Shown: positions 18,273 through 31,995 of the stretch, one piece after another
Position numbering within the stretch: position 1 is the first letter of the stretch
Layout of the letters: every line of letters begins with the position of its first letter
NCBI GenBank assembly: GCA_031316235.1
Contig: JALDRA010000001.1
Span: forward strand, 4,050,001 to 4,082,000
Reading direction: 5' to 3'
Length of the DNA: 32,000 nucleotides
Source of the DNA: Candidatus Scalindua sp.
GTDB lineage: Bacteria > Planctomycetota > Brocadiia > Brocadiales > Scalinduaceae
The notes under the pieces: model-generated
What the model was told of the DNA's origin: nothing
The model's input: the letters and a program-made list of their open reading frames with translations, nothing else
Databases searched by the model: none
Made by a program: the position numbers and the translations under genes

Positions 18273-18752
18273 TTACTTTCTTACATAAGCACCGCTTTTT
18301 CCTCCTGATTTTTTGACTAAATGTATGTCACTTATGGTCATTGCTCTATCTGCAGATTTACACATATCATAAATTGTAAGAGCACAAATTGTAACAGACG
18401 TCAGTGCTTCCATCTCTACCCCGGTTTTACCAGACACCTTAACCTCTGATGTGATTTGAATGGAATCAAGATTATTATTTGTATAATCAATCTTAACAGA
18501 ACTCAGATTAAGAGGATGACACATCGGCACCAGATCCGATGTTCTCTTTGCTGCCATAATTCCTGCCACACGAGCTACTTCAAGAACATCGCCTTTCGCT
18601 ATTTTCTTATCTATAATGAGCGAAAATGTTTCACGGTTCATCGTAATCTTGGCATGAGCAGTTGCAATTCTTTCCGTGATTTTTTTCTCACCAATGTCAA
18701 CCATCCTTGATGCACCGCTTTCATCTATATGCGTTAATCTTATCTTGTCCAT
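18273..18752 (-). CDS. moaC: Cyclic pyranopterin monophosphate synthase MoaC
   Basis: LTHIDESGASRMVDIGEKKITERIA...AGIMAAKRTSDLVPMCHPL...TGVEMEALT, 159 aa. Confidence 0.92.
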   Translation of the reverse strand: MDKIRLTHIDESGASRMVDIGEKKITERIATAHAKITMNRETFSLIIDKKIAKGDVLEVARVAGIMAAKRTSDLVPMCHPLNLSSVKIDYTNNNLDSIQITSEVKVSGKTGVEMEALTSVTICALTIYDMCKSADRAMTISDIHLVKKSGGKSGAYVRK

Positions 18753-18838
18753 AAATATTTTGTAAAACCGACCATGTACCAGGAAAACAATTTTGAGAGA
18801 AGATTCTCTTTACTCCTTGGTAACTTTCTCTTTAAATA

Positions 18839-19816
18839 TCAACCTCCAATTTGATGCATCACAGCACTATTTCTCCCGGAATGAATTACGGGCTTCATCA
18901 TCGTTACTTTCATAAATGCATTTGTCAGCTGTTCGGCCAGGCCGGCATTATCAAAGACATCTGAACGTAGAATCTCTTTGACGTCGACCTCCCCGCCACT
19001 CAGCAGGCATGACCGTAACATGCCATCTGAAGTAAGTCTCAACCGATTGCACTTGTCACAGAAAGGCTTAGAGACTGCGGAAATAAACCCCAGAGAACCC
19101 AAGGCTCCCTTTATTTTATATATGGTTGCCGGCCCGCCACCCAGCCTCTGCTTCACAGGAGTAAGTTCTCCAATTTCCTCGACTCGTTGTTGTATCTCAG
19201 AGGCAGGTACAAACCGTTCTTCATCAACCATGTTTTTCCATCCGGAAGCCATGAGTTCAATAAATCGAAGCTCTATTCTCCTCTCAAATATGTAACGGAC
19301 AAAATCGTGGATTTCATCATCATTCTTTCCACGGATTACGACGACATTTATCTTTGTACCCTGAAAGCCTGCATCTAAAACTTCTTCAATTCCCTCCAGC
19401 ACATGCTCCAGACTGCCACCCCTTGTTATCTCGTCAAATCTGTCCTTGCGTAATGTATCCAAACTTACATTAAACCTGGTCAAACCGTTCTTCTTCAAAG
19501 TTTTTGCAAATTTCTTCAAAAAGGTTCCATTTGTCGTCATAGCAATGTCATTAACACCTTCAAGTTCCGCAATCCGTTTGGTTAAGGTTTCAATACCCTT
19601 TCTTACCAACGGTTCACCACCCGTAAGCCTGATCTTGTTGATACCAAGGCTGACACCGTGTTTTACCACTTTAAGAATTTCTTCAAAACTGAGAATTTCA
19701 TCCTTCCTGAGTAGATTGGCTCCCTGCACAGGCATGCAGTAGGTGCATCTTAAATTGCAGAGATCAGTAACAGAAATCCTCATATAATTTATATTTCTAA
19801 AATTTTTGTCGATCAT
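18839..19816 (-). CDS. moaA: GTP 3',8-cyclase MoaA (radical SAM)
   Basis: MRISVTDLCNLRCTYCMP, IRLTGGEPL, C-terminal CDKCNRLRLTSDG and terminal GG. Confidence 0.92.
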   Translation of the reverse strand: MIDKNFRNINYMRISVTDLCNLRCTYCMPVQGANLLRKDEILSFEEILKVVKHGVSLGINKIRLTGGEPLVRKGIETLTKRIAELEGVNDIAMTTNGTFLKKFAKTLKKNGLTRFNVSLDTLRKDRFDEITRGGSLEHVLEGIEEVLDAGFQGTKINVVVIRGKNDDEIHDFVRYIFERRIELRFIELMASGWKNMVDEERFVPASEIQQRVEEIGELTPVKQRLGGGPATIYKIKGALGSLGFISAVSKPFCDKCNRLRLTSDGMLRSCLLSGGEVDVKEILRSDVFDNAGLAEQLTNAFMKVTMMKPVIHSGRNSAVMHQIGG

Positions 19817-19820
19817 GAAG

Positions 19821-20693
19821 TCAAGCTCCCTCTGGCCGCTTATTTATCTTTTTTGTTATTTCATTAAATGCGGACGAATAGTCTGAATCACTACGTGCAG
19901 CAACGAACGCTTTCCCTTCATCGCACTGACGTGTGATCTGCGGATCCAGTGGGATCTTACCAAGAAATGGTACACCCATTTTTTTCGCGATCTTCTCCCC
20001 GCCTCCGCTCTTGAATACATCAATCTTCTCATTACAATGAGGACAGGTTAAAATACTCATGTTTTCAACAAGCCCTATGATTTTTATGTTATTGTCCCTG
20101 GCGAACAAAATTGCCTTTTGGGCATCTAATAAAGCTACATCCTGTGGTGTTGTTACGATTATTGCACCGTCAATCTTACCCAGTAATTCAATTAACGTAA
20201 TTGGTTCGTTGCCTGTTCCAGGTGGTAAATCTACAAGCAAATAATCAAGTTCACCCCAATTAATGCTCCCTACCAGCTCGCATAAAAAATCATACTTTGC
20301 TGCATCTCTCCATGCAACAGGTTCATCAGGCCTTTCAATGAGAAAAGAGAGTGATACAACTTTTAGATTCTCACTGACTGATAACGGTTCAATACCCAAT
20401 TTGTTACTCTTGAGCCTGGCTCCCTGGACTCCCAGCATTATTGGTATATTAGGCCCATGGATGTCTGCGTCTCCAACCCCGACCTTATACCCTAATCTGG
20501 CCAGATACACACCCAGGTTTGCTGTTACCGTACTTTTCCCAACACCTCCCTTATTACTCATAATCACGATCTTTTGATCGATCTTAGACATTCTATTGCT
20601 AATAGCCCATTTATTATGTTCGTGATGGTCTATCTTACATTCAGAATTTTTTTCACATAATTCACACGTAAATGGTAAATTACATTCACTCAC
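19821..20693 (-). CDS. mrp: Mrp/ApbC/NBP35-family Fe-S cluster carrier ATPase with Cys/His-rich N-terminal extension
   Basis: MSNKGGVGKST, DADIHGPN, LVDLPPGTGNE, CPHCNEKIDVF. N-terminal CNLPFTCELCEKNSECKIDHHEH. GTG start with GTGA overlap onto the upstream stop. Confidence 0.85.
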   Translation of the reverse strand: MSECNLPFTCELCEKNSECKIDHHEHNKWAISNRMSKIDQKIVIMSNKGGVGKSTVTANLGVYLARLGYKVGVGDADIHGPNIPIMLGVQGARLKSNKLGIEPLSVSENLKVVSLSFLIERPDEPVAWRDAAKYDFLCELVGSINWGELDYLLVDLPPGTGNEPITLIELLGKIDGAIIVTTPQDVALLDAQKAILFARDNNIKIIGLVENMSILTCPHCNEKIDVFKSGGGEKIAKKMGVPFLGKIPLDPQITRQCDEGKAFVAARSDSDYSSAFNEITKKINKRPEGA

Positions 20694-21328
20694 GAGTTCC
20701 CCCTTTCCGTTGTCAATTCCTCATGCACGGGAGCCACCTTGATGGCAATCGGTTGATTAACCGTATTGCAGATATTCTCACAAATACCGCATCCCACACA
20801 TTTTTCCCTATCAACTAATGGTCTGTTATCATCCTGATATATTGCACCTGGTATGGGACAACTTCTTACGCAGTGTTCGCAAAATTGAGCACCCCAGGCC
20901 ATACAGTGCGACTCATTTATATATGCATGGCCCATCCTGACTTTGCCTTTGTCCTGAACCTCTACAAGTGCTCCTTCCTTACATGCCTTTATACAGGGAA
21001 AACCCTCACAGAGATAGCACGGCACCTCTTCCGGCAGTATCATAGGTGTACCGTATGATATATCAAGCTCCTCATTTACCCTTCGAATACTCTTGTGCGG
21101 ACAGACCTTTATACATTCATCACATTTCGTGCACAGAGAGAGAAATTCATTTTCAGGTACAGACCCGGGAGGGCGTAGAAAACGCCTGGCTTTAATAACA
21201 GTGTACGGTTTCTCTTGAGAAGTTAAATCGATCTTATTTTTGACAACATCGTGAATCTTATTACCCACAAAAGAAAAGGTTTCCTTAAAAAACAGCCTCC
21301 TCCCCTGGTCTATTGTTTCTTCATTCAT
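20690..21328 (-). CDS. NapF/MauM-like poly-ferredoxin (four Cys clusters) with vestigial twin-arginine motif
   Basis: N-terminal QGRRLFFK, LRPPGSVPENEFLSLCTKCDECIKVCP, CYLCEGFPCIKAC, CMAWGAQFCEHCVRSCP, CVGCGICENIC. Layout parallels NapF. Confidence 0.7.
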   Translation of the reverse strand: MNEETIDQGRRLFFKETFSFVGNKIHDVVKNKIDLTSQEKPYTVIKARRFLRPPGSVPENEFLSLCTKCDECIKVCPHKSIRRVNEELDISYGTPMILPEEVPCYLCEGFPCIKACKEGALVEVQDKGKVRMGHAYINESHCMAWGAQFCEHCVRSCPIPGAIYQDDNRPLVDREKCVGCGICENICNTVNQPIAIKVAPVHEELTTERGNS

Positions 21329-21467
21329 ATTATACTACCTTTATAATAGTCTTATACAAAAAATCTTTCTTCATGTGTTAATCTCATCATGCCTGCCTGT
21401 GAGTAAATACCTGTCTTTGTGCATCTCCCACACAGACACAACTCTTCTAAAACTGGTACCTCCTCCC

Positions 21468-21626
21468 GTAAGTTCAAACTGTTTTCAGTGATCAAACTTT
21501 TCAGTTTAACTACCCTCTTTTGTCATGCCTGAATGCCTTTATCGGGCATCCAGAATTGTCGTCACCGCTGGATTCCCGCTTAAAGCATGCGGGAATGACA
21601 ATTTTCTGAAAACAGTTTGAACTTAC
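21468..21626. mobile_element. 159-bp MITE-like non-autonomous element
   Basis: Perfect 21-bp terminal inverted repeats gtaagttcaaactgttttcag (21468-21488) and ctgaaaacagtttgaacttac (21606-21626). Flanked by direct cctcctcc (21459-21466 and 21627-21634). Internal hairpin attcccgc-N9-gcgggaat. No ORF. Confidence 0.8.
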
Positions 21627-21819
21627 CCTCCTCCAATGACCTGTAGGGCGGGTAACGAGTTTCCTTTCGTTGCTTAACGTCATTGCAGAATCAGGTTCAG
21701 CACTGGTTTTGGTATCTGACCACCCGGATGAATCTGTTCAGGCTGGCCAGACTGTTTCGTTCAGACAGATGTACTGATGCACAGTAAACAAGCTTCAGGA
21801 ATTCCCATACCTATGTTTA

Positions 21820-23634
21820 CTATTCATTCAGCTCATGTGGCCGAACACCCTTTAGATCAGCAGGCTCCTCAAACTTATACTCCCCTGATTCAGCAGCAAA
21901 GTGACCTAAATAGAGCAATCCATCTGACATTGAAAAATTGTATGGAAAAATCGGTAATCGTTTATCTATTTCAGATTTTATATACTCGTAAACACTACTG
22001 GATTCCTCAGGTGGCATACCCCTCTCTGTCTCATAAAAATAGCCAAGACTCAGATCGTCAAGCATTGGGTGCCCTATTCTGGACAAACCGTACTTACCCG
22101 GATCTCGCATAATAGGGGCATGTTTTTCCAGTTCAAAGAGACAAACCAGGCAGGAAGCGCCTTTTGACCTCATAAACCGGTCATGGGAAAGAACAAAATC
22201 AAGAGTCTCAAGTGCTTCTTCCCGAGACTCAGTCGGAAATCCGACAATAACATACATATGTATGGCAATGCCGGAATCCAGGCAGGAATCGATAATATTC
22301 CTGGTGATTTCCGTCTCAGTCCCCTTCTCCATCAATGAAAGAATCCTTTTGTTTGAAGATTCAAGACCATATACCAGCTTAAGACAACCAGCGCTTCTCA
22401 CCTCCTTTAATATTTCTTTCGTAAGCCCCTTATCGAAACGTACCCCTGCCATCCACTTAATGCTGCACTCCTCATCGATCAATCGCAAACTCAGATTATG
22501 CAATTGTTTTACCGGCATGCACTCATCACTAAAAAACAGATATTCCGTATCATATTTTTCTTTGAGCTTCACCACGTCTTCAAGCAGCAGTTCTAAATTC
22601 CTTGATCTGAAACGCAAATTGTCTACATGAAGATTACAGAACGTACACTTTCTCCAGTAGCATCCTCTTGATCCCTGCAGTGGTAAAACCCTTACCGGAG
22701 ACAAATATTTGTCCAGGTGAAAACCATCATAATCAGGTGTAGGCAGAGAATTTATATCCTCTATATGAAATGGTTCATTCACACAAATTTTATTATTACC
22801 TTTAAAGACAAGATTTGGTACCTTATAAAAATCCCTCTCACCTTCAAGCTGCTCTATTAATCCGAGAAGTGCATGTTCTCCCTCAAACACGATAAAACTA
22901 TCAACGAGTTCAAAGAGCTTATGATTTTTTTGAAGATTATCGATAAGCTTTGTGAACACACTCCCTCCCATAGTTATATGAATGTTCCTGTATTTTTCTT
23001 TCAACAATCTGGCCATTGTAAAAGCCGGCATTACCTGTGAAGTAGCCGTAACTGAAATACCGATGAGACACTGTTCCTCTATTTTAAGTGAATCAAGGAT
23101 GTGTATCCTGAAAAGATCACAATACGGATTCTCTTTCTCATCATTCACTGCCTTCAAAACCTCTTGCGTAGAATATACGCTGTATCTCATGGTATTGTCG
23201 GAAATTGAAATTTCAGAAGGATAATACAACATACCAAATACCTGCAGCCACCTGTCAATTATCTTCCAGCTCTCAACATAATCATTTATATCATAAAAAC
23301 CATCAGACTTTAACGTTTGTTTTGCCCATTCTACATTTTGAACCATATTGTCATCTTCTATTGAGTCCCTTGCCCACTCAAGCCTTGAAATGATATCATC
23401 CTCATTTTGTCCGGATATACTGGACGGTATACCATTGCTGAGTTTATCAACAATAGCTGCATAGGTTCCTTTGACCTTGGCTGCAGAGAGCAACACATCC
23501 ATTATCTCAATATTGATATCCCTGATGGAAACATTCTCTACCCCTTCTTTCTTAAGAAATGCCTGTAAAGAAGGAAGACTTAAAAAAGGTTGAGAGGGAA
23601 TCCATGACGGCGGAAAAAGTAATAGTACCTGCAA
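21820..23634 (-). CDS. B12-binding-domain (class B) radical SAM enzyme, function unknown
   Basis: N-terminal VLLLFPPSW...LPSLQAFLKKEG (cobalamin-binding-domain-like), radical SAM core GSRGCYWRKCTFCN, 604 aa. TTG start with AAGGG upstream. Confidence 0.75.
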   Translation of the reverse strand: MQVLLLFPPSWIPSQPFLSLPSLQAFLKKEGVENVSIRDINIEIMDVLLSAAKVKGTYAAIVDKLSNGIPSSISGQNEDDIISRLEWARDSIEDDNMVQNVEWAKQTLKSDGFYDINDYVESWKIIDRWLQVFGMLYYPSEISISDNTMRYSVYSTQEVLKAVNDEKENPYCDLFRIHILDSLKIEEQCLIGISVTATSQVMPAFTMARLLKEKYRNIHITMGGSVFTKLIDNLQKNHKLFELVDSFIVFEGEHALLGLIEQLEGERDFYKVPNLVFKGNNKICVNEPFHIEDINSLPTPDYDGFHLDKYLSPVRVLPLQGSRGCYWRKCTFCNLHVDNLRFRSRNLELLLEDVVKLKEKYDTEYLFFSDECMPVKQLHNLSLRLIDEECSIKWMAGVRFDKGLTKEILKEVRSAGCLKLVYGLESSNKRILSLMEKGTETEITRNIIDSCLDSGIAIHMYVIVGFPTESREEALETLDFVLSHDRFMRSKGASCLVCLFELEKHAPIMRDPGKYGLSRIGHPMLDDLSLGYFYETERGMPPEESSSVYEYIKSEIDKRLPIFPYNFSMSDGLLYLGHFAAESGEYKFEEPADLKGVRPHELNE

Positions 23635-23788: not shown

Positions 23789-26700
23789 CTACTCAACAGA
23801 AGTGGTTCCTCCGGCAAGATAAAGTTTCATAAACTTACTCTCGTTCGCAGGAGTAAATCCTGTCCTTGCAGGTTCCCAAACACCTTTGGCACCGAGACCC
23901 CCATCTTCAGCCTTTGTGATCCTCACCAGGGTTTCCTTCGGAACAGTATTCACAACGTGGTTGTCTGCCTCACCACCATGCATATAACCCATAGCAACCT
24001 TCTTTTTATGGAAGAGCGTATCAGTCTGATGCATCGGCATCAGCCACGATCTCGTGATAGACTGCTGTGATCCATATCTAAAGTTAGCAAGATAACCGTC
24101 CGAGGACATAGCCATGCCGTCTTTCCTGGACTCGTGGGCCTTCACACTCTTCTCAGTTGAAACATTTGTTGAGTGTTTCATCATCGTAGTGTGGTACGGA
24201 TATGCTGGATTGTACTTAGCTCTCACCATCAACCGTGCCACCTTATAAAACGGATCGTTCGGTTTCCACCCCCTGTATGGCCTATCAACGGGATTTGCGT
24301 CAACATAGATGTAATCACCATCGTTGATACCAAGGTCCTTGGCAGCTACAGGATTGATATGGAGCTGATGTTCACCCGCACCCGGACTTCTCTTATCCAT
24401 CCTGTATGGATCTCCGAAGTTGTTGTTCCAGATAAGGTTCCAATCCACCGTACTCCACTGCGAGTGAACCCTGTGCCTCGTCTTCGGAGTAACGCAATAG
24501 AATCGATAACCCCTTTCCCAAAGAGGATTCTTCGTCTTCTTTACCTCGTTCCACGGCATCTTGATATTTCTTACATGACGCTCATCAGCCCCCATATGAC
24601 TCTGAGGTATTCCATAATCCTCTGGCCTGATATAAGGGTTCGTGCTGACAATAACATTCGGCAGGTAAGGCGTCGCCTCAACAGCCTCCCGGTGACAAAC
24701 GAAGTTTTCTCCGTATTCGATCGCCTCAGGTATATCACAGTAGGAATGAATCCTTCCATCATCAGTAGCAAATGGACGATCATAGACCACCTGTTCATAC
24801 ATCGGTGTCCTCGGATACGTACCAAAATTCAAGAGTGCTCCTCCGGGGACCCCATATTTACCGGCAATCATCTCATTCACATTATACCCTCGTGTTGGAA
24901 CACTTCCATCAAAGAGCCTCTGCATATAGATTTCCGGTCTCCCCTCAAGCGCAAATTTCCAGTAATCAGCAAACCTGCCATCTCCAAGGATCTCACCCAT
25001 TCTTTTTGCAATCAAGGCGGGAACCATAACATCATCCTTCGTATCGTGAAGCGGTTTAATACCACCCTTCCACACCTGCAAGAATGGATTTGAACACGAA
25101 CAGGTAACCTCATAATGTTCAAACTCCATCCAGGAGTTGACAGGAAATCCAACGTCAGCATATTGAATTGAAGACGTCATCATGATATCACTGGACATTA
25201 TCAGGTCGATCCTTGGATTTACATTTTTGAACATCTCATAAACCCATTTAGCATTATTAAGCAGGTTGACGTTATTGAACCACAAAACCTTGGTAGGAGT
25301 GTTATAGTGGGTCACTCCCGTAAAGCTCTTTCTCCCGAACTTTGGTGTATTAACAATCAAAGGAGTATCACCATGGTTCCAATACGCAACCTCTTCATCC
25401 ATTGCATAACTATGTGCATGGATACTCTTACCATCAGCACGGGGATCAAGATTCATGTCGAACGGATCCTCAGCAATAATGCCCTTGAACCCTGGACCCG
25501 ACCAACTTGACGCCTGAAAGTTCCCGGCCTTGTAATTACCAGCCCATGTGTGCGAACCAGTACCATGATAGCCAATATTTCCTGTCAGCATTAAAGGCAG
25601 ATAGGTTGCCCGGTTATGCAGCGTCGCATGGAAATAGTGGTTTATCCCCTCGCCATAGTGTATGGCAGCAGGTTTGATCGTAGCAAGGTCCTTAGCCAGC
25701 CTCTCAATAAGATGAGGAGGTGAACCGGTTATTTCAGCGGTGGTCTTTACATCAAAGTCTCGCAGATGTATCTTATACATATCAAACAGCGTCATAACTT
25801 CAATTTCCTTACCATCAACCGTCTTCACCTTAAAAGTGCCTTCCAATACCGGATCTATACCTTTTGACACCATTTTCTTACCAACATCCTCCCTGGTTAT
25901 CGCCTTGACACTTTTTGTCTTTGAATCATATACAACGAAATCACCAATTGAATCACGCTGCTCCTGCGTCAACCCCTGCACCGTGTGACTATAGTCAAGC
26001 GCTGGCGCTTTATAGTCGGCAATTACCTCTTCAGCCTTCAACCTCTTCAAGGTATCAGTCCTGATAAGGAGTGGGAAATCGGTAAACTTCTTGACAAAGT
26101 CTGCGTCATACCAATTGTTATCAATTAATATCTTGGTCAGACAGAGAAAGATTGTTGTATCTGAAATTCCGGTTCTGCAAGGTATCCAGTAATCGACTTT
26201 TGTTGCTGAGGGGCTGTATTCCGGAGTTATACATACCAGTTTTCCACCCCTCTCCATGATCTCTGTCAACCAGTGCGCCTCAGGCATCTTGTTTTCAATC
26301 AGATTTTTTCCCACCTGTATGAGTAACTTGGTGTACCGAAGGTCGGCGAAATCAACGTCAGATGCCTGCAGTCCATGAACAAATGGGTGCCCCGGCGCCT
26401 GGTCGCCATGCCAGGTGTAATTTGAAAATCTTCTGCCACCCATTGCTTTATCAGGTCCAACACCTCTTACGTTGGCATCAAGGAGGGCAAGCATGTTGGA
26501 GAAACGATACATCCCCATGTATTTCCCAATCACACCCAGCAAACCCATCCCCCCACGGTTTTTAAAACACCTCGTACCGGCACCATTCCAGTGGGTAAGC
26601 GTCTCCGGAGCATATTTGTCCCTCTCCAGCAGTCTTTTCTTGCCTTCCTCACCGCTGTATGCCTTGGCTATGTGGATCATACCTCTTGCGACATAATCCA

Positions 26701-27235
26701 CGATATCATCCCATGACGTCTTTAACAGTTCATCAGATCCCCTGGCAGTAAACCTGTATTTCTCTCTATTATCCCAATCAAGTTCCGGAAAACCATCGTC
26801 TGCCCACTCCTTCCACCCTTTTCTCAGAAGAGGATGCCTTAACCTGTGCGGGCCGTATACCCTCCTGAAAAAGGTATACCCCTTTAAACACATCCTGGGA
26901 TTCCATGTCCTTTGAGGTTTTCTGCCCTCCAGATCTCCATAGTCCTGATGCTCATAATCCTGCTCAACCCGGATCACCACACCGTTTCTGACAAAAGCCC
27001 TCACCCTGCATTGGTGGGTATCATTTGGAGAACAACAAAACGCAAAATCGCGATCATAACGGTATTGGTCTCTGTATACATCTTCCCAGTCCCTCTCAGG
27101 ATAAGCATCGAGAGGGTTATTCGCCTCAACTGCAGGCCTCAGCGATTTAAAGGCCAGAGCCTTTCTCGTTGGTATTGAAACAGCCGCAGTTACCCCTCCA
27201 GCAATCTTAATAAACGTCCTACGTGTAAGATTCAT
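23789..27235 (-). CDS. nxrA: Nitrite oxidoreductase / nitrate reductase alpha subunit, periplasmic (Tat-exported) type II DMSO-reductase family
   Basis: Tat signal MNLTRRTFIKIAGGVTAAVSIPTRKALA. N-terminal FS0 motif region CCSPNDTHQCRVRAFVRNG. 1148 aa, molybdopterin oxidoreductase-like throughout. Strong AAGGAGG SD. Adjacent to nxrB, nxrC and a TorD-like gene. Confidence 0.85.
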   Translation of the reverse strand: MNLTRRTFIKIAGGVTAAVSIPTRKALAFKSLRPAVEANNPLDAYPERDWEDVYRDQYRYDRDFAFCCSPNDTHQCRVRAFVRNGVVIRVEQDYEHQDYGDLEGRKPQRTWNPRMCLKGYTFFRRVYGPHRLRHPLLRKGWKEWADDGFPELDWDNREKYRFTARGSDELLKTSWDDIVDYVARGMIHIAKAYSGEEGKKRLLERDKYAPETLTHWNGAGTRCFKNRGGMGLLGVIGKYMGMYRFSNMLALLDANVRGVGPDKAMGGRRFSNYTWHGDQAPGHPFVHGLQASDVDFADLRYTKLLIQVGKNLIENKMPEAHWLTEIMERGGKLVCITPEYSPSATKVDYWIPCRTGISDTTIFLCLTKILIDNNWYDADFVKKFTDFPLLIRTDTLKRLKAEEVIADYKAPALDYSHTVQGLTQEQRDSIGDFVVYDSKTKSVKAITREDVGKKMVSKGIDPVLEGTFKVKTVDGKEIEVMTLFDMYKIHLRDFDVKTTAEITGSPPHLIERLAKDLATIKPAAIHYGEGINHYFHATLHNRATYLPLMLTGNIGYHGTGSHTWAGNYKAGNFQASSWSGPGFKGIIAEDPFDMNLDPRADGKSIHAHSYAMDEEVAYWNHGDTPLIVNTPKFGRKSFTGVTHYNTPTKVLWFNNVNLLNNAKWVYEMFKNVNPRIDLIMSSDIMMTSSIQYADVGFPVNSWMEFEHYEVTCSCSNPFLQVWKGGIKPLHDTKDDVMVPALIAKRMGEILGDGRFADYWKFALEGRPEIYMQRLFDGSVPTRGYNVNEMIAGKYGVPGGALLNFGTYPRTPMYEQVVYDRPFATDDGRIHSYCDIPEAIEYGENFVCHREAVEATPYLPNVIVSTNPYIRPEDYGIPQSHMGADERHVRNIKMPWNEVKKTKNPLWERGYRFYCVTPKTRHRVHSQWSTVDWNLIWNNNFGDPYRMDKRSPGAGEHQLHINPVAAKDLGINDGDYIYVDANPVDRPYRGWKPNDPFYKVARLMVRAKYNPAYPYHTTMMKHSTNVSTEKSVKAHESRKDGMAMSSDGYLANFRYGSQQSITRSWLMPMHQTDTLFHKKKVAMGYMHGGEADNHVVNTVPKETLVRITKAEDGGLGAKGVWEPARTGFTPANESKFMKLYLAGGTTSVE

Positions 27236-27283: not shown

Positions 27284-28285
27284 CTACCACTTCCCGACCT
27301 TGATTTTATAGTATTCGGTACACCTGGCACAAACACCATCATGCGGTTCCCAGTCTGGAAAGTCCTCTTTTAACACTTTAACCATCTCTTCATCATTTGC
27401 CACCTCATCAAGCCACTCAAACGATGGAAATCCGCAGAGTGGACAGGTTGTACCAGGAAGTGGCCCTATCTTCTTCACCTCTTCTCCACCCTCATTGAGA
27501 TCATTTTCACCTTCAGCCAATGACAATACATTATTTATCTTTCTCGACAATTCAACAATTTTATCATGAGTTAAAGGCTCATCAACTCTCCAGAGTCTGG
27601 CAAAAATTTGCTCCTTGGTATCATCCGGAATTTTTTTAAAGAAGGTATCGAATTCTCTATTCCAGCTCTCCCTGGTTCCATGAGTCTCTTTCCCCATCTT
27701 TTCCAATCGACCATCGACATAGATATCCCAGAAAAGGCGGTACCTATCACGAATGATACGGTCTTCCATAGGAGAAGGGTGAAAATCCTCTACCTGATAA
27801 CCAAAACTCTTATCCATGATATCAGAAACATGCATGAGCTCGTGTCGCATCACCTTGGAAATCTCTTCACCGGTAAGAAAAAGCTCCGGGTATAGTCGGA
27901 CAATTACTTTCTTCCCTTCATCAACCACATTCGACCCCTCATTTTGCCGTGTTGTAGCCCTTCTCACATGCACCTCTTCAACAATCTCTTTAATGTCAGG
28001 AAACTCACCAAACACCTCAGCGACGTATCCATCAAATCCTAACAGCTTAAAGAACTCATTATCAAGCGCTCTGAATTTCTTCGGCCTCATTTCCGGCTCA
28101 AGCTCATAGATTGCATCCCTTTGTTTATGATAAGCGACATAGAGATCGTAATCACCGTTTTTCTCCCTCTCTGCCAGACCTTTGTAAACAATATCGTCAA
28201 CCAGCTGCGGGTCATACTTGATATCAAGCTCTCTCGGCTCTTTTTTCTCTTCCGTATTTGGCTCTTTCTCTTCAGTCTTAAGCAT
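27284..28285 (-). CDS. Uncharacterised cytoplasmic protein with HExxH motif and C-terminal CPxCGF...CxxC module (nxr-cluster accessory)
   Basis: HELMH at 27830-27844. C-terminal CPLCGFPSFEWLD...FPDWEPHDGVCARCTEYY. K/E-rich N-terminus. The track ORF extends to 28366, but the ATG at 28285 (MLKTEEK) overlaps the upstream stop by 8 nt and follows GAGGAAGAG. Confidence 0.6.
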   Translation of the reverse strand: MLKTEEKEPNTEEKKEPRELDIKYDPQLVDDIVYKGLAEREKNGDYDLYVAYHKQRDAIYELEPEMRPKKFRALDNEFFKLLGFDGYVAEVFGEFPDIKEIVEEVHVRRATTRQNEGSNVVDEGKKVIVRLYPELFLTGEEISKVMRHELMHVSDIMDKSFGYQVEDFHPSPMEDRIIRDRYRLFWDIYVDGRLEKMGKETHGTRESWNREFDTFFKKIPDDTKEQIFARLWRVDEPLTHDKIVELSRKINNVLSLAEGENDLNEGGEEVKKIGPLPGTTCPLCGFPSFEWLDEVANDEEMVKVLKEDFPDWEPHDGVCARCTEYYKIKVGKW

Positions 28286-29054
28286 ACTCTTCCTCATCCA
28301 TACAAGAGTCACACGCCATAGCGCTCTTACCTTCAAGCCTCTGCAGATAATCAGGCTCATTGCCATGAGATGCGTCTACCTCTTCGGTATCAATTTCAAG
28401 CTTCGTCATTTCAAGATGGATAAAAGTATTTGCCAACTCGGCAACATGACGGTAAAATTCTACCGGAGATTTTTTCGAAACTGTAATTGCAAAGGCACTT
28501 ATCCATCTTCCGATATGGGCCATCAGGAACTTTTTCTTCCCGGCAAGACACAGATCAAACTCATCTTTCCCATGGTTGTTTTCAATGGCATAGGCGAGTT
28601 TATACGTTATAAAGTGCATAAACTCTAACTCCACAGCAATATGGTCCCACCTGCTCGTTGAATCACCCTCGGCAATCTCCAAGCCATACGCCTTATAAAA
28701 GCCGGATATATCGGCAAGATCCTGAGTTTGCTGCCATATGTGTGAGCCGCTGAAATACATCTCAAAGGGTGGACAGTCCATGGCAACAGTAGAGCTCCCA
28801 AAAGTAGACCGAAACCCCTGGGCCAAAGTTTCAAGATCACTGCTCCGCAAACTCACCTTCAGCAACCTGAATGTTTCGGACAGCTCTCCGTTATCGCTCT
28901 TACCCAGACAACTTTCCACCTCGTCAAGGTACTCAGAGTCATTCACCAAATCGAACGTATTTTTATCAAGTTCAAAAAGACAGGTCGAAAGAAATTGATA
29001 CACCTGGCTCGCCGCCAGCAACTCTTCAACCTCTTCACTTTTATTGTTTTCCAT
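28278..29054 (-). CDS. TorD/NarJ/DmsD-family redox-enzyme maturation chaperone (NXR delta-like)
   Basis: 258 aa, helical, with N-terminal AASQVYQFLSTCLFELD typical of the family. Positioned between the nxrB and nxrA genes. AGGAG SD. Confidence 0.6.
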   Translation of the reverse strand: MENNKSEEVEELLAASQVYQFLSTCLFELDKNTFDLVNDSEYLDEVESCLGKSDNGELSETFRLLKVSLRSSDLETLAQGFRSTFGSSTVAMDCPPFEMYFSGSHIWQQTQDLADISGFYKAYGLEIAEGDSTSRWDHIAVELEFMHFITYKLAYAIENNHGKDEFDLCLAGKKKFLMAHIGRWISAFAITVSKKSPVEFYRHVAELANTFIHLEMTKLEIDTEEVDASHGNEPDYLQRLEGKSAMACDSCMDEEEYA

Positions 29055-29075
29055 AAAATACTCCTGATATCAGTA

Positions 29076-29678
29076 TCACTTCACATTTTTAAAGTAATCC
29101 TGCACATATTTTGACTTGTTATAACCAATTACATACTCATCGGTAGTTGAAGCGACCTTGCCGTCATACCAGGTTCCAGACGTTACTGTGTAATTTTCAA
29201 AACAGTTTCGGCAGATACCATCATCCTGAGTCCAGCTGGGATTATCTACCTGTATAGTCTTCAACGTTTTACTATCCATGAAACCGTTATCGAGCCAGAA
29301 GTAAGTGTCAAATCCGCAAATCGGGCAGGGGCTATGGTATTTATCTGCACTTAGATTGGCCGGTTCCTGATACGCTAACCTTGAATGCTTCTCAGTTTTC
29401 CGTATCCTGTTGACCCACCCTTTTTCCCCCTCAATCCAGAAGATATCGGTAAAATTCGGTGTACTGTTTTTCGTTTCTTCAGCGGGGAGCTCCTCAAATG
29501 AGTTCCAGGGAATATTCCCCGTATTTCTCTGATGGTATTTCGCATCGGTCGCAGGCTTAAATGCCTCAAACCCACCTTTCCATTCACCAGCAACAGAGTT
29601 TCCCGGACCGAAAGTGATCAAGCCCATCCCCACAAAGACAAATCCCACAAACAAACAAATATATTTCTGGTGTTTCAT
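29076..29678 (-). CDS. Uncharacterised exported/anchored protein with C-terminal CPxCGF...CxxC module (nxr-cluster accessory)
   Basis: Sec-type signal or anchor MKHQKYICLFVGFVFVGMGLITFG. C-terminal CPICGFDTYFWLD...NPSWTQDDGICRNCFENY is paralogous to the tail of the 333-aa protein. GGGAGGA SD. Confidence 0.6.
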   Translation of the reverse strand: MKHQKYICLFVGFVFVGMGLITFGPGNSVAGEWKGGFEAFKPATDAKYHQRNTGNIPWNSFEELPAEETKNSTPNFTDIFWIEGEKGWVNRIRKTEKHSRLAYQEPANLSADKYHSPCPICGFDTYFWLDNGFMDSKTLKTIQVDNPSWTQDDGICRNCFENYTVTSGTWYDGKVASTTDEYVIGYNKSKYVQDYFKNVK

Positions 29679-29731: not shown

Positions 29732-30994
29732 TTAGTACGTAACCATCCTCTTTTCATCGCTTTCCCAGGTAGGCTCCTCAACCTGAACCCTCACCATCTC
29801 TGTCCCGTCCGATGCAAACCCTATAACAGTGTCGTTGTACACTTCGAACTTCCTGCCATCTACCTGAGTCTCATAAATCTTCTTTCCTTCCTCAATTTCA
29901 AATCTTGCAAACATGGTCTGCGTTGTCCTGAACAGCTGCAATACCGCCATCAATTCTCTTGAAGGCGTTGCATACTTTTCAAGCGCCTCCTCAACACCAG
30001 GTCCAAACATCTGGCGTAAATAGCTCCTCGGAGCCCACCGTGGCGGGATGTAATAAACGTTTGGTTCCGTACCAAATTGAGGATACAGCGGCAACGCTAC
30101 CCTATGAATATGGATCAACCAGTCCAGCGGATTCTTCGGATCCGGTTTTGTGTAGTCACCCGTCAGCAACCCGTTGAGCCTGATCTTCCCGACACAGGCA
30201 GCCATACATCTCGCCTCCATCCTTCTCCCCTTGGTTATGGGGTCCTTACCTTCAACTCGGGGATAACATGCAATGCACTTCTCTGAAATACGTGTTTCTC
30301 CCCTGTACATGGGTTTTTTGTATGGGCACTGCTCTACACACTTCCTGTACCCCCTGCATCGCTTCTGATCTATCAAGACAATCCCGTCCTCTTTCCTTTT
30401 ATAGATTGCCTTCCTTGGACAGGCTGCAAGGCAAGCTGGATAAGTGCAGTGGTTACAGATCCGTTGAAGATAGAAAAACCATCTCTTGTGCTCCGGAAGC
30501 TCAGATGACTCACTTGCCGCTTCCGTCTCATAGTTTGTCTTCTCACTTGATGCGGTATCTTCATAGATATTTGGAAATCTCCACTCCTTATCGTCCGGTA
30601 TATACCCAACTGCCACCTGATTGAGACCCTTTGTCTGGGCCAGCTCAAAGATCGTGTCGCTGTTATAAAGCCCATAAGGTGCAGCAACAGCGTCTTTGTC
30701 ATCATCAGACGTAAACCACTCCATCGGGTTATTACCATTATCCCACAGCAGCTGCAATATCTTATGATCCCAGAATTGCGGATAACCCCCATATGGCTTC
30801 GTTTCTACATTATTCCACCACATATACTCCTGCCCCTTACTATAGGTCCATGTACTTTTGTGGGCCATCGTACAGGTCTGACAGGCTATACACCTGTTGA
30901 TATTAAAAACAGCTGCAAATTGCTGTTTTGGTCTTGACTCAAAATATGGATACTCCATCTTCCTTCCAAGATGCCAATTGTGAACAAGCGTCAT
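29732..30994 (-). CDS. nxrB: Nitrite oxidoreductase / nitrate reductase beta (Fe-S) subunit
   Basis: NarH-type cluster motifs CIACQTCTMAHK, CNHCTYPACLAACP, CRGYRKCVEQCP, CIACYPRVE. 420 aa. AAGGAGGGG SD. Confidence 0.88.
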   Translation of the reverse strand: MTLVHNWHLGRKMEYPYFESRPKQQFAAVFNINRCIACQTCTMAHKSTWTYSKGQEYMWWNNVETKPYGGYPQFWDHKILQLLWDNGNNPMEWFTSDDDKDAVAAPYGLYNSDTIFELAQTKGLNQVAVGYIPDDKEWRFPNIYEDTASSEKTNYETEAASESSELPEHKRWFFYLQRICNHCTYPACLAACPRKAIYKRKEDGIVLIDQKRCRGYRKCVEQCPYKKPMYRGETRISEKCIACYPRVEGKDPITKGRRMEARCMAACVGKIRLNGLLTGDYTKPDPKNPLDWLIHIHRVALPLYPQFGTEPNVYYIPPRWAPRSYLRQMFGPGVEEALEKYATPSRELMAVLQLFRTTQTMFARFEIEEGKKIYETQVDGRKFEVYNDTVIGFASDGTEMVRVQVEEPTWESDEKRMVTY

Positions 30995-31056: not shown

Positions 31057-31995
31057 TTATTCCAGATATTTCACCGTTTCCAGCTTAATAGGATTCCATC
31101 TTGTGCTGATTGATTTCTGACCGTTCCTGTCACCCTCTTCACCGTCCCAGACTGCAACATTAAAAAAAGTCTCCACCCCGGGTATAAACTGAACATCGCT
31201 AGTATCAGCAGTGACCAGGCTCCTGTACATAGTCACATTCCACCCATCACCATTCCAGTTACCTTGTCCCTGCACATCCTGATGCTCTTGTGTAGTCAGC
31301 GTACTGAACCCGATAGCGTTCAGATCTTCAACGGTAGTTCCTTTATTCGGCTGCGAAAGCAAATTCCCTGCAGCCCTTCCACCGGATATAAGTGGTATGC
31401 TGTGATACTCTTGATCGTGAAAATGCAAAGGATGAGTATGGAAATCATAATCGGTAAACATATCCGGATATTGATCTTCCATGTGCTCGAACCCACACTC
31501 TGAATCCAATTCTCTTTCCCAATCAGCTTTCCAGTGCCAGATATTCACAGGCTTCCCCCTGTCTCCCATCCTTGGACTAAACGGTGTGTCCGGCGAAATG
31601 GTAACAATATCCAGCGGAAACATCATGCCTACTGCATCGCGAAACAGATGGTCGGCAATAATTCGATCGTTTTTTGTTTTATCACTCCACTTGAAATTAA
31701 AAAATATCCTGTCACCATTGTGCACCCCTCTTACTTCCAGGGCACTTACCGTACCTCCTCCGTTAGGAAACGCCCTGTCCTGCATCTGCAGCTCAATCGT
31801 AAGAGGTTCGGATTGAGCAAATGCCTTATCAATCGAATCGAGATCAGCATTGATATATTTAACAACAAGCCCTTTCTCCCTCGGTATATTTTCCTCCACA
31901 GTTGCTTCTGAGTCCAACTCCTGTGAAAAAGCTCTATCATTTAAACTAAAAAACAGCGTGGCACCAGCGAACATACACAGGACAGATTTAAACAA
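31057..31995 (-). CDS. nxrC: Type II DMSO-reductase-family gamma (heme b, EbdC/SerC/DdhC-like) subunit
   Basis: Signal peptide MFKSVLCMFAGATLFFSLNDRAFSQ. FNFKWSD...FRDAVGMMFPLD and WHWKADW resemble the ethylbenzene-dehydrogenase gamma-like fold family. Immediately upstream of nxrB. Confidence 0.7.
   Translation of the reverse strand: MFKSVLCMFAGATLFFSLNDRAFSQELDSEATVEENIPREKGLVVKYINADLDSIDKAFAQSEPLTIELQMQDRAFPNGGGTVSALEVRGVHNGDRIFFNFKWSDKTKNDRIIADHLFRDAVGMMFPLDIVTISPDTPFSPRMGDRGKPVNIWHWKADWERELDSECGFEHMEDQYPDMFTDYDFHTHPLHFHDQEYHSIPLISGGRAAGNLLSQPNKGTTVEDLNAIGFSTLTTQEHQDVQGQGNWNGDGWNVTMYRSLVTADTSDVQFIPGVETFFNVAVWDGEEGDRNGQKSISTRWNPIKLETVKYLE

Follow-up and report, generated by a model that had tools for sequence, protein, structure and literature searches.

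A 32,000-nucleotide window from Candidatus Scalindua sp. (GCA_031316235.1, contig JALDRA010000001.1, positions 4,050,001 to 4,082,000) carries a nitrite oxidoreductase (NXR) gene cluster with two additional genes, orf333 and orf200, on either side of nxrD, which encodes a NarJ/TorD-type chaperone. The proteins of both genes share a domain with four cysteines (the finger), located at the C-terminus of orf333 and in the middle of orf200. Relatives of orf333 accompany NXR genes in unrelated phyla, while orf200 was found in Scalindua only and is predicted to be exported. We consider orf333 to be a probable cytoplasmic partner of NxrD in the maturation of NXR, and orf200 to be a lineage-specific exported protein with a borrowed finger, and we give this reading a probability of roughly 55%. 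The window comes from a marine anammox bacterium, as a Candidatus Scalindua metagenome-assembled genome (MAG) encodes a protein with 100% identity to orf200.

A homologous four-cysteine domain in orf333 and orf200

The tail of orf333 (minus strand, 27287-27445) is translated as CPLCGFPSFEWLDEVANDEEMVKVLKEDFPDWEPHDGVCARCTEYYKIKVGKW, and the corresponding part of orf200 (minus strand, 29190-29327) as CPICGFDTYFWLDNGFMDSKTLKTIQVDNPSWTQDDGICRNCFENY; both are exactly the peptides given in the sequence-only reading. An earlier, sequence-only reading had noticed the same cysteine spacing and about a third identical residues in these segments, and both features were borne out. BLASTP between the full-length proteins gave a single ungapped segment with 21 of 53 residues identical (40%; 57% positives, E = 2e-14), and a profile-profile comparison of 44 orf333-type with 52 orf200-type sequences aligned 57 columns at 99.2% probability (E = 3.4e-19), so that the similarity is significant at both levels. 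The similarity extends beyond the last cysteine (xExYxxxxGxW), past the segment proposed earlier, and no second alignable region was found between the two families in the same profile-profile comparison. Judged from these alignments, the shared segment is one homologous domain of ~55 residues.

A joint alignment of 27 non-redundant modules contained eight invariant columns (four Cys, two Trp, one Asp, and one Tyr), with the consensus CPLC-G/x-F/x-P-T/S-Y/F-x-W ... D-x-x-T/I ... I-K-x-D-F/Y-P-x-W-x-x-x-D-G-V-C-R/x-x-C-x-E-x-Y-x-x-R/K-x-G-K-W. The cysteine pairs, C281/C284 and C319/C322 in orf333 and C118/C121 and C156/C159 in orf200, were kept in all members examined. The invariant residues of the orf200 family were C118, C121, C156, C159, W128, W149, D145, and Y163, and 95 diverse full-length members of the orf333 family retained the four cysteines and W312 throughout (95/95) and W291 with one exception (94/95).

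Short cysteine-rich motifs frequently coincide, and orf200 gave sub-threshold matches to Pfam zinc ribbons (e.g., Zn_Ribbon_Prim and Zn_ribbon_RRN7, 16.0 and 11.2 bits against cutoffs of 23 and 27.1) through the CPICG knuckle only; nevertheless, a chance or convergent resemblance of two generic CxxC...CxxC zinc ribbons is practically ruled out by the alignment statistics given above, by the ungapped match over 53-57 residues, and by the four non-cysteine columns that are invariant across both families. No zinc-ribbon match of orf333 was obtained in Pfam at E ≤ 1, the module lacked sequence matches in Pfam, NCBIfam, and PDB, and neither the module profile nor the full-length profile retrieved a PDB sequence below E = 0.07. 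The module is thus homologous in the two proteins and distinct from a generic zinc ribbon, a match to which the sequence-only reading had named as a refutation.

According to the DSSP assignment of the AlphaFold2 (AF2) model of orf333, the first CxxC lies between strands 279-280 and 287-288 as a hairpin knuckle, and the second starts helix 320-329. In this model, the module looks like a treble-clef-type metal finger, with a CPxC knuckle, a helix with DFPxW, and a CxxC at the start of a second helix. The finger may bind metal, possibly Zn(II). Most orf200 homologues have a fifth cysteine directly after the finger (CxxCFEC-Y); in orf200 of the window and the proteins nearest to it, this segment reads CFENY, CFDAY, or the like instead (29190-29204 region).

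The orf333 family and its linkage to nitrite oxidoreductase genes

The module profile was scanned against 1.84 billion representative proteins clustered at 50% identity, and the module was found in 610 clusters at E ≤ 1e-3 and in 136 at E ≤ 1e-10. The top 150 matches were mostly proteins of 290-345 aa with a C-terminal module, an HExxHxxD motif at about residue 130, and an N-terminus resembling YDPxLVEEVV. For orf333 itself, 114 close homologues were identified. No usable match to a Pfam or NCBIfam model was obtained for orf333, orf200, or nine diverse family members.

We also searched 185,579 species, each represented by a single genome, for the pattern CPLC[RG]FPT[YF], derived from an 18-sequence alignment; this pattern leaves out Scalindua (FPS) and possibly other anammox genera. 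The pattern matched 490 stretches, 488 of which were confirmed to encode orf333 relatives. The majority of the best 80 loci belonged to Nitrospira and other Nitrospirales, and the remainder included Nitrospinae, Methylomirabilota, the archaeon Ca. Hydrothermarchaeum, Poribacteria, Tectomicrobia, Anaerolineae, Verrucomicrobiota, Acidobacteriota, Planctomycetota, and others.

The NXR proteins of the window were searched against the family loci by tblastn. A NarJ/TorD-like gene on the same strand was present in 74 of 86 loci, and the exceptions, apart from L086, were contigs that end too early. Three co-directional gene orders were distinguished, in which orf333h denotes the orf333 homologue. In type I (the window, L001, L006, L029, and L070), nxrB and nxrD are followed by orf333h and then by nxrA or nxrC. 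In type II (L002-L004, L010, L011, L015, and L045), orf333h is followed by nxrA, nxrB, nxrD, and nxrC, with nxrA 14-376 nt after orf333h. In type III (Nitrospira), orf333h is followed by a ferredoxin gene with RRxFLK, nxrD, nxrC, and a B12-binding radical S-adenosylmethionine (radical-SAM) gene. Across eleven non-Nitrospira loci, including L001-L004, L010, L015, and L045, NxrA starts within the same 14-376 nt downstream of orf333h. The NxrA proteins beside orf333 homologues were 57-68% identical to that of the window in other phyla and 90% identical in another Scalindua.

The linkage persists among divergent members. We looked up nine of these in metagenomic contigs, three of them with a degenerate HExxH, and eight showed NxrB (58-70% identical), a PF02613 gene, orf333h, and then NxrA, NxrC, MoaA, or MOSC, frequently with stop/start overlaps. 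In the ninth context (L086), a PF02613 gene is lacking upstream, and the gene that comes next is Mrp-like. Other genes in the neighborhood encode MoaA, MoaC, an MrpORP-like carrier, a NapG/NapF-like ferredoxin, and a B12 radical-SAM protein, and one cluster (L087) also contains TatA and MobB. These results indicate that the orf333 family is an accessory gene of periplasmic-type NXR clusters with synteny conserved across unrelated phyla, and the tie to NXR genes proposed in the sequence-only reading holds for this family. In L087, a non-Scalindua NXR cluster, tatA and MobB/MOSC genes (19799-20963) stand directly after the ferredoxin and Mrp genes, and export and molybdenum-cofactor genes are thus within the same operon-like array.

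The existence of the family was already known, although it had not been characterized before. Lücker et al. 2013 (PMC3578206) counted one "putative zinc finger" protein in the gene set that the NXR regions of Kuenenia, Nitrospira, and Nitrospina have in common, and a 2025 comparison of Nitrospirales mentions "several proteins of unknown function" in a conserved NxrC/TorD cluster (PMC12342949). By gene order and length, an orf333 counterpart matches one of the "proteins of unknown function" among NITMOv2_3614-3631. The gene of the literature and orf333 agree in being conserved beside nxrD, nxrC, and nxrA, expressed, and unnamed; in contrast, the HExxH/zincin-like core, the NarJ-like coupling, the distribution over at least 10 phyla, and the Scalindua paralogue are not mentioned under the "putative zinc finger" label. 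Therefore, the claim of the sequence-only reading that orf333 and orf200 are an undescribed pair has to be corrected, as the orf333 family had been listed and occurs in at least 488 genome loci, and the two genes form a pair only in Scalindua. What this analysis adds is the zincin-like architecture of the family, the degenerate state of its metal motif in some members, its strict NarJ-like coupling across many phyla, and the exported finger paralogue of Scalindua. A literature search for a zinc ribbon, metalloprotease, or maturation factor in connection with NXR found nothing specific.

Presumed counterparts of orf333 and orf200 are expressed in anammox bacteria. In the cluster scal00868-00861 of S. 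profunda (nxrA = 00863, nxrD = 00865, nxrB = 00867), scal00864 has transcript rank 29 and 8 peptides, and scal00866 has 5 of 17 observable peptides and an exponentially modified protein abundance index (emPAI) of 1.6; both are annotated as "unknown protein" (PMC3655542). Their reads-to-coverage ratios imply ~980 nt and ~580 nt, fitting orf333 and orf200, to which they match as counterparts. Two genes of K. stuttgartiensis located between nxrA and nxrB, kustd1701 and kustd1702, are transcribed and drop together with NXR under growth fed with nitric oxide, and neither was detected among the proteins (PMC6423088). One of these two genes is most probably the counterpart of orf333.

The AF2 model of orf333, built from a 72-sequence alignment, was confident (predicted local distance difference test [pLDDT] 92.6, predicted template-modeling score 0.84). 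It shows N-terminal helices, a three-stranded sheet (104-109, 117-121, and 126-131), helix 140-157, further helices, a lower-confidence linker, and the finger at the end. Helix 140-157 carries HELMHVSD, with H148-E-L-M-H152 placed on a helix as in zincins, and this motif was invariant in two alignments of the family. Foldseek searches against PDB returned zincins as all interpretable top matches (4l7a, a putative Zn-metallopeptidase; selecase; Wss1; SPRTN; M61; and archaemetzincin), none of them significant: the best match, 4l7a, had E = 0.087 and a query template-modeling (TM) score of 0.27 (TM 0.27-0.31), and none reached E ≤ 0.001. Among the 95 diverse members, conservation was 72/95 for H148, 91/95 for E149, 86/95 for H152, 93/95 for D155, and 85/95 for H240, and F161 and W186 were nearly or fully invariant. 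By conservation, D155 and H240 are candidates for a third zinc ligand. From the model, we read the orf333 core as zincin-like and not as a member of any known peptidase family.

Dedicated endopeptidases act on the large subunits of [NiFe]-hydrogenases, and orf333 could, by analogy, be an active zinc metalloprotease that processes NxrA at an N- or C-terminal segment or degrades NXR subunits failing cofactor loading, with the finger positioning the substrate. The intact HExxHxxD of the window and of almost every locus among the 88 checked in genomes and metagenomes, the retention of the catalytic Glu in 91/95 members, and the zincin proteases among the weak structural neighbors speak for this alternative. 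However, HExxH histidines are missing in 26/95 diverse members, about a quarter, which stay in NXR clusters, so zinc-protease chemistry is not the universal function of the family. Moreover, the Foldseek matches are insignificant and cytoplasmic cleavage of NxrA is not described in PMC8387239. We regard an active protease as a tentative alternative and rather unlikely.

Two variants of the family architecture were observed. P0110 (297 aa, "Parcubacteria" bin GW2011_GWF2_38_8) is 68% identical to orf333 over its N-terminal 184 residues, up to WDISVD, and continues with a LAGLIDADG-type homing-endonuclease region (PF14528); an inserted intein or homing endonuclease could explain this switch, as could chimerism or misbinning of the contig. 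In P0271 (479 aa, L086 2493-3932) and P0224 (262 aa), the finger is followed by a conserved helical stretch of ~160 residues.

Topology and lineage distribution of orf200

The N-terminus of orf200 reads MKHQK / YICLFVGFVFVGMGLITFG / NSVA|G, that is, a basic n-region, a hydrophobic h-region, and small residues at -3/-1. It contains a 19-residue hydrophobic stretch, and the Kyte-Doolittle mean over 15 residues peaks at 2.72 at residue 7. The family alignment showed a basic (K/R) n-region, a hydrophobic core of 18-19 residues, and V-x-A at 28-30, with Ala30 at least 90% conserved; neither a twin-arginine motif nor a lipobox was found in the N-termini of this alignment. By inspection, orf200 is predicted to be exported through Sec, and its finger is predicted to lie outside the cytoplasm (in the anammoxosome or periplasm) with either a cleaved signal or an N-in anchor. 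Orf333 has a strongly charged N-terminus and no hydrophobic segment in a hydropathy scan, and was modeled as a soluble protein. Among the top 150 module matches, a hydrophobic N-terminus occurred in orf200-type proteins only. The placement of the two proteins on opposite sides of the membrane, as claimed in the sequence-only reading, therefore stands as a prediction from sequence inspection. Four proteins of the orf333 family (P0228, P0232, P0252, and P0317) have RRxFL-type twin-arginine-like N-termini without a convincing hydrophobic core, which could be miscalled starts or decoys for a TorD-like chaperone.

We identified 62 homologues of orf200 down to 44% identity, and all of those named to genus or family were Scalindua or Scalinduaceae. 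The gene stands between nxrB and nxrD in every Scalindua locus seen: the gene order of a distant Scalindua genome (L088; orf200 homologue 47% and NxrA 90% identical) is identical to that of the window, and S. rubra and another MAG have the same order by locus tag. In L087, the closest non-Scalindua cluster (NxrA 68% identical), nxrD directly follows nxrB and leaves no space for orf200, and the N- and C-terminal parts of orf200 had no match in the non-Scalindua loci examined. The orthologous nxr clusters examined outside Scalindua thus lack orf200 and retain orf333, which goes halfway toward the refutation named in the sequence-only reading (both genes absent from such clusters), and the linkage originally proposed for both genes applies across lineages to orf333 only. 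A hidden Markov model of the orf200 finger scored a median of 68.7 bits on Scalindua orf333 fingers and 52.5 bits on those of other lineages, which weakly suggests that the orf200 finger was copied from orf333 within the anammox/Scalindua lineage.

It is also conceivable, though unlikely, that orf200 is a lineage-specific structural subunit or a tubule/organization factor of Scalindua NXR, tied to orf333 by nothing but the recycled domain. Its constant position between nxrB and nxrD and its predicted export fit such a role, as does the emPAI of its counterpart, which is within about 2-3 fold of that of NarH (3.4) and close to that of NxrB, as expected of a stoichiometric component. Also, NXR-T, the tubule-inducing subunit of Kuenenia (Kustd1705), is poorly conserved and its placement is genus-specific (PMC8387239). 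As a genus-variable extra protein on the anammoxosome side, NXR-T is a possible functional analogue of orf200; however, NXR-T is a monohaem cytochrome c, and orf200 lacks a CxxCH haem motif and shares only the finger with orf333. The lack of a haem motif and the poor structure model argue against a structural subunit.

Possible roles of the two proteins and the surrounding genes

A role of orf333 in maturation is suggested by its pairing with NxrD, which is often translationally coupled, its predicted cytoplasmic location, the cofactor and export genes in its neighborhood, its high transcription, and its absence from the reported NXR preparations. Purified Kuenenia NXR consists of A, B, and C, and purified tubules additionally contain NXR-T (PMC8387239); a transient factor would fit this composition. 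We propose that orf333 may act with NxrD as an NXR-specific maturation or proofreading factor on apo-NxrA or NxrAB ahead of export by twin-arginine translocation (Tat). The zincin-like groove would serve as a peptide-binding and possibly peptide-cleaving site, which might be catalytic where HExxH is intact and would act as a pseudo-protease, for binding only, where it is degenerate. Both fingers might bind the same NXR surface, that of orf333 before and that of orf200 after export, and orf200 might attach to NXR again once in the anammoxosome, either as one of its subunits or as an organizer. NxrA and NxrB are the candidate shared target because only they, as Tat cargo, occur folded on both sides of the membrane.

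Several points weigh against this reading. The structural matches to zincins are insignificant, and the loss of HExxH histidines described above concerns members that remain linked to NXR. The orf200 model (pLDDT 52.6) was poor outside the finger, and the relatively high emPAI of orf200 points to a stoichiometric component rather than a catalytic helper. Gene context was inspected in the best 80 of the 488 genome loci, and the counterparts in S. profunda (scal00864 and scal00866) were assigned by gene order and implied length, not sequence, as was the Kuenenia counterpart by gene order and length without sequence confirmation.

A stronger version of the preferred reading holds that docking to NXR is the dedicated task of the finger on either side of the Tat pathway, that the zincin-derived orf333 family uses it with NxrD to hold and proofread, or process, apo-NxrAB and is an obligatory maturation factor wherever periplasmic-type NXR occurs, and that the finger was copied in marine anammox bacteria into orf200, which re-binds the same surface. 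We consider this version doubtful. If true, the orf333 family would be an obligatory, so far missing factor for producing NXR, and orf200 an unrecognized NXR subunit or organizer.

The CPxCG knuckle and an aromatic-rich core are rubredoxin-like traits. The Cys4 module could therefore bind iron or an iron-sulfur (Fe-S) cluster instead of zinc and take part in electron transfer or in the supply of Fe-S. In this case, orf333 would serve FS0 or the NxrB clusters on the cytoplasmic side, and NXR would have orf200 as its small redox partner within the anammoxosome; the NapG/NapF-like ferredoxin and the MrpORP-like carrier among the neighbors would be in line with this. It is nevertheless improbable, since no rubredoxin or Fe-S family in Pfam matched even at E ≤ 1, and the module differs from rubredoxin in its predicted richness in helix and in the helical position of its second CxxC. 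The identification of the finger as a rubredoxin was rejected.

A homologue (P0001) carries the Joint Genome Institute label "predicted Zn-ribbon and HTH transcriptional regulator". A function of orf333 in regulating transcription of the nxr operon, through a Zn-ribbon and a helix-turn-helix (HTH), is very improbable and was rejected: no HTH family matched in Pfam or NCBIfam at E ≤ 1, no DNA-binding proteins were among the structural neighbors, and the gene is translationally coupled to a chaperone gene and very highly transcribed. Furthermore, a regulatory role is less needed because a conserved pair of a sensor kinase and a sigma-54-dependent response regulator adjoins the clusters. This pair was observed upstream of the clusters in L054 (4034-8667), L087 (1-2115), and L088 (3843-7023), that is, in Nitrospirales, Scalindua, and the L087 lineage.

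Compared with known systems, the proposed role of orf333 resembles that of NarJ, TorD, and DmsD (PF02613), which are cytoplasmic, operon-encoded proteins for one Tat-dependent molybdoenzyme, with an expected action before export. In contrast to these, orf333 has no PF02613 match, is predicted to fold differently (with a sheet, an HExxH helix, and a Cys4 finger), and accompanies a PF02613 protein instead of replacing one. The possibility that orf333 is a homologue of the redox enzyme maturation proteins was rejected, as neither orf333 nor orf200 matched PF02613, and the member of this family is the neighboring gene at 28278-29054. The SprT/Wss1/SPRTN zincins, known from DNA-protein crosslink repair, and the selecase-type minigluzincins also have a small β-sheet and an HExxH helix followed by a Cys-rich metal-binding domain, and they were among the top structural neighbors of orf333, but the matches were insignificant (E 0.09-1.4, TM ≤ 0.44 on the target), no Pfam match was obtained, and the putative third ligand of orf333 is another residue (Asp, three positions after the second His). 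NapF, NapG, and NapD are likewise accessory proteins of a Tat-exported nitrate/nitrite molybdoenzyme, and a NapG/NapF-like ferredoxin accompanies orf333 homologues; however, their sequences are unrelated to orf333 and orf200.

Most of the Earth's nitrate is produced by periplasmic-type NXR, a central enzyme of nitrification and anammox. A literature search, which was not exhaustive, turned up no case of its production in a heterologous host. The orf333 family, being linked to NXR across phyla, highly expressed, and without a family model, is an obvious candidate for a missing NXR maturation factor and could be used as a genomic marker for periplasmic-type NXR. Its partly degenerate zincin-like core offers concrete residues for mutation, and the exported copy in Scalindua is a natural experiment on the binding target of the finger. 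In addition, orf200 may hint at an NXR component specific to Scalindua, the genus that dominates among marine anammox bacteria.

The features of the window are given in Table 1. The genes are transcribed in the order nxrC-like, nxrB, orf200, nxrD, orf333, and nxrA, with operon-like gaps of 53, 21, and 48 nt and an overlap of 8 nt between the orf333 ATG and the nxrD stop (ATGCTTAA). The match of nxrD to TIGR03482 (type II DMSO-reductase chaperone; E = 4.8e-18) was under the curated cutoff. The longest open reading frame (ORF) of orf333 has 360 aa, and all homologues begin at its Met28; the 27-residue extension overlaps nxrD and is missing from homologues, so the 360-aa version was rejected. The length of 333 aa used in the sequence-only reading agrees with these starts and with a GAGGA ribosome-binding site ahead of the ATG.

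Table 1. Coordinates of genes and protein features in the window
Feature	Position	Strand	Basis
nxrC-like haem-b subunit (EB_dh), signal peptide	31057-31995	-	PF09459, E = 4e-33
nxrB	29732-30994	-	TIGR03478; 53 nt upstream of orf200
orf200 coding sequence, 200 aa, Scalindua-restricted, predicted exported	29076-29678	-	62 homologues; ribosome-binding site AAGGGAGGA
orf200 predicted Sec signal peptide or signal anchor (residues 1-30)	29589-29678	-	Alignment and hydropathy, by inspection
orf200 Cys4 finger (C118-W170)	29169-29327	-	BLASTP and profile-profile
nxrD, NarJ/TorD-type chaperone gene between both finger genes	28278-29054	-	PF02613, E = 2.9e-14
orf333 coding sequence, 333 aa, family with zincin-like core and C-terminal Cys4 finger	27284-28285	-	Homologue starts, ribosome-binding site
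orf333 HELMHVSD motif (H148, E149, H152, D155), helix 140-157	27821-27844	-	Alignments, AF2
orf333 Cys4 finger (C281-W333), CPLCGF..W..DFPDW..DGVCxRCxEYY..GKW	27287-27445	-	BLASTP, profile-profile, family conservation
nxrA, 1148 aa, twin-arginine TRRTFIK	23789-27235	-	TIGR03479; 48 nt downstream of orf333
Co-directional set (the five genes below)	18273-23634	-	Domain matches
B12-binding radical-SAM	21820-23634	-	
NapG/NapF-like ferredoxin	20690-21328	-	
MrpORP/ApbC-like Fe-S carrier	19821-20693	-	
MoaA	18839-19816	-	
MoaC	18273-18752	-	

The B12-binding radical-SAM gene directly follows nxrA in Scalindua and in L087, and genes of the same type were found at L054 14245-16020, L087 14573-16273, and L088 16163-17953, as well as in the accessory cluster of Nitrospira (42/86 loci). 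The protein resembles the C-methyltransferases of ribosomally synthesized and post-translationally modified peptides and of the methyl-coenzyme M reductase type, with scores under the curated cutoffs, and its occurrence in these clusters raises the possibility of a post-translational modification of NXR. The poly-ferredoxin (NapG/MauM/NapF-like) has a vestigial twin-arginine motif (GRRLFFK) without a hydrophobic core, and in Nitrospira loci the ferredoxin gene directly follows the orf333 homologues (62/86 loci).

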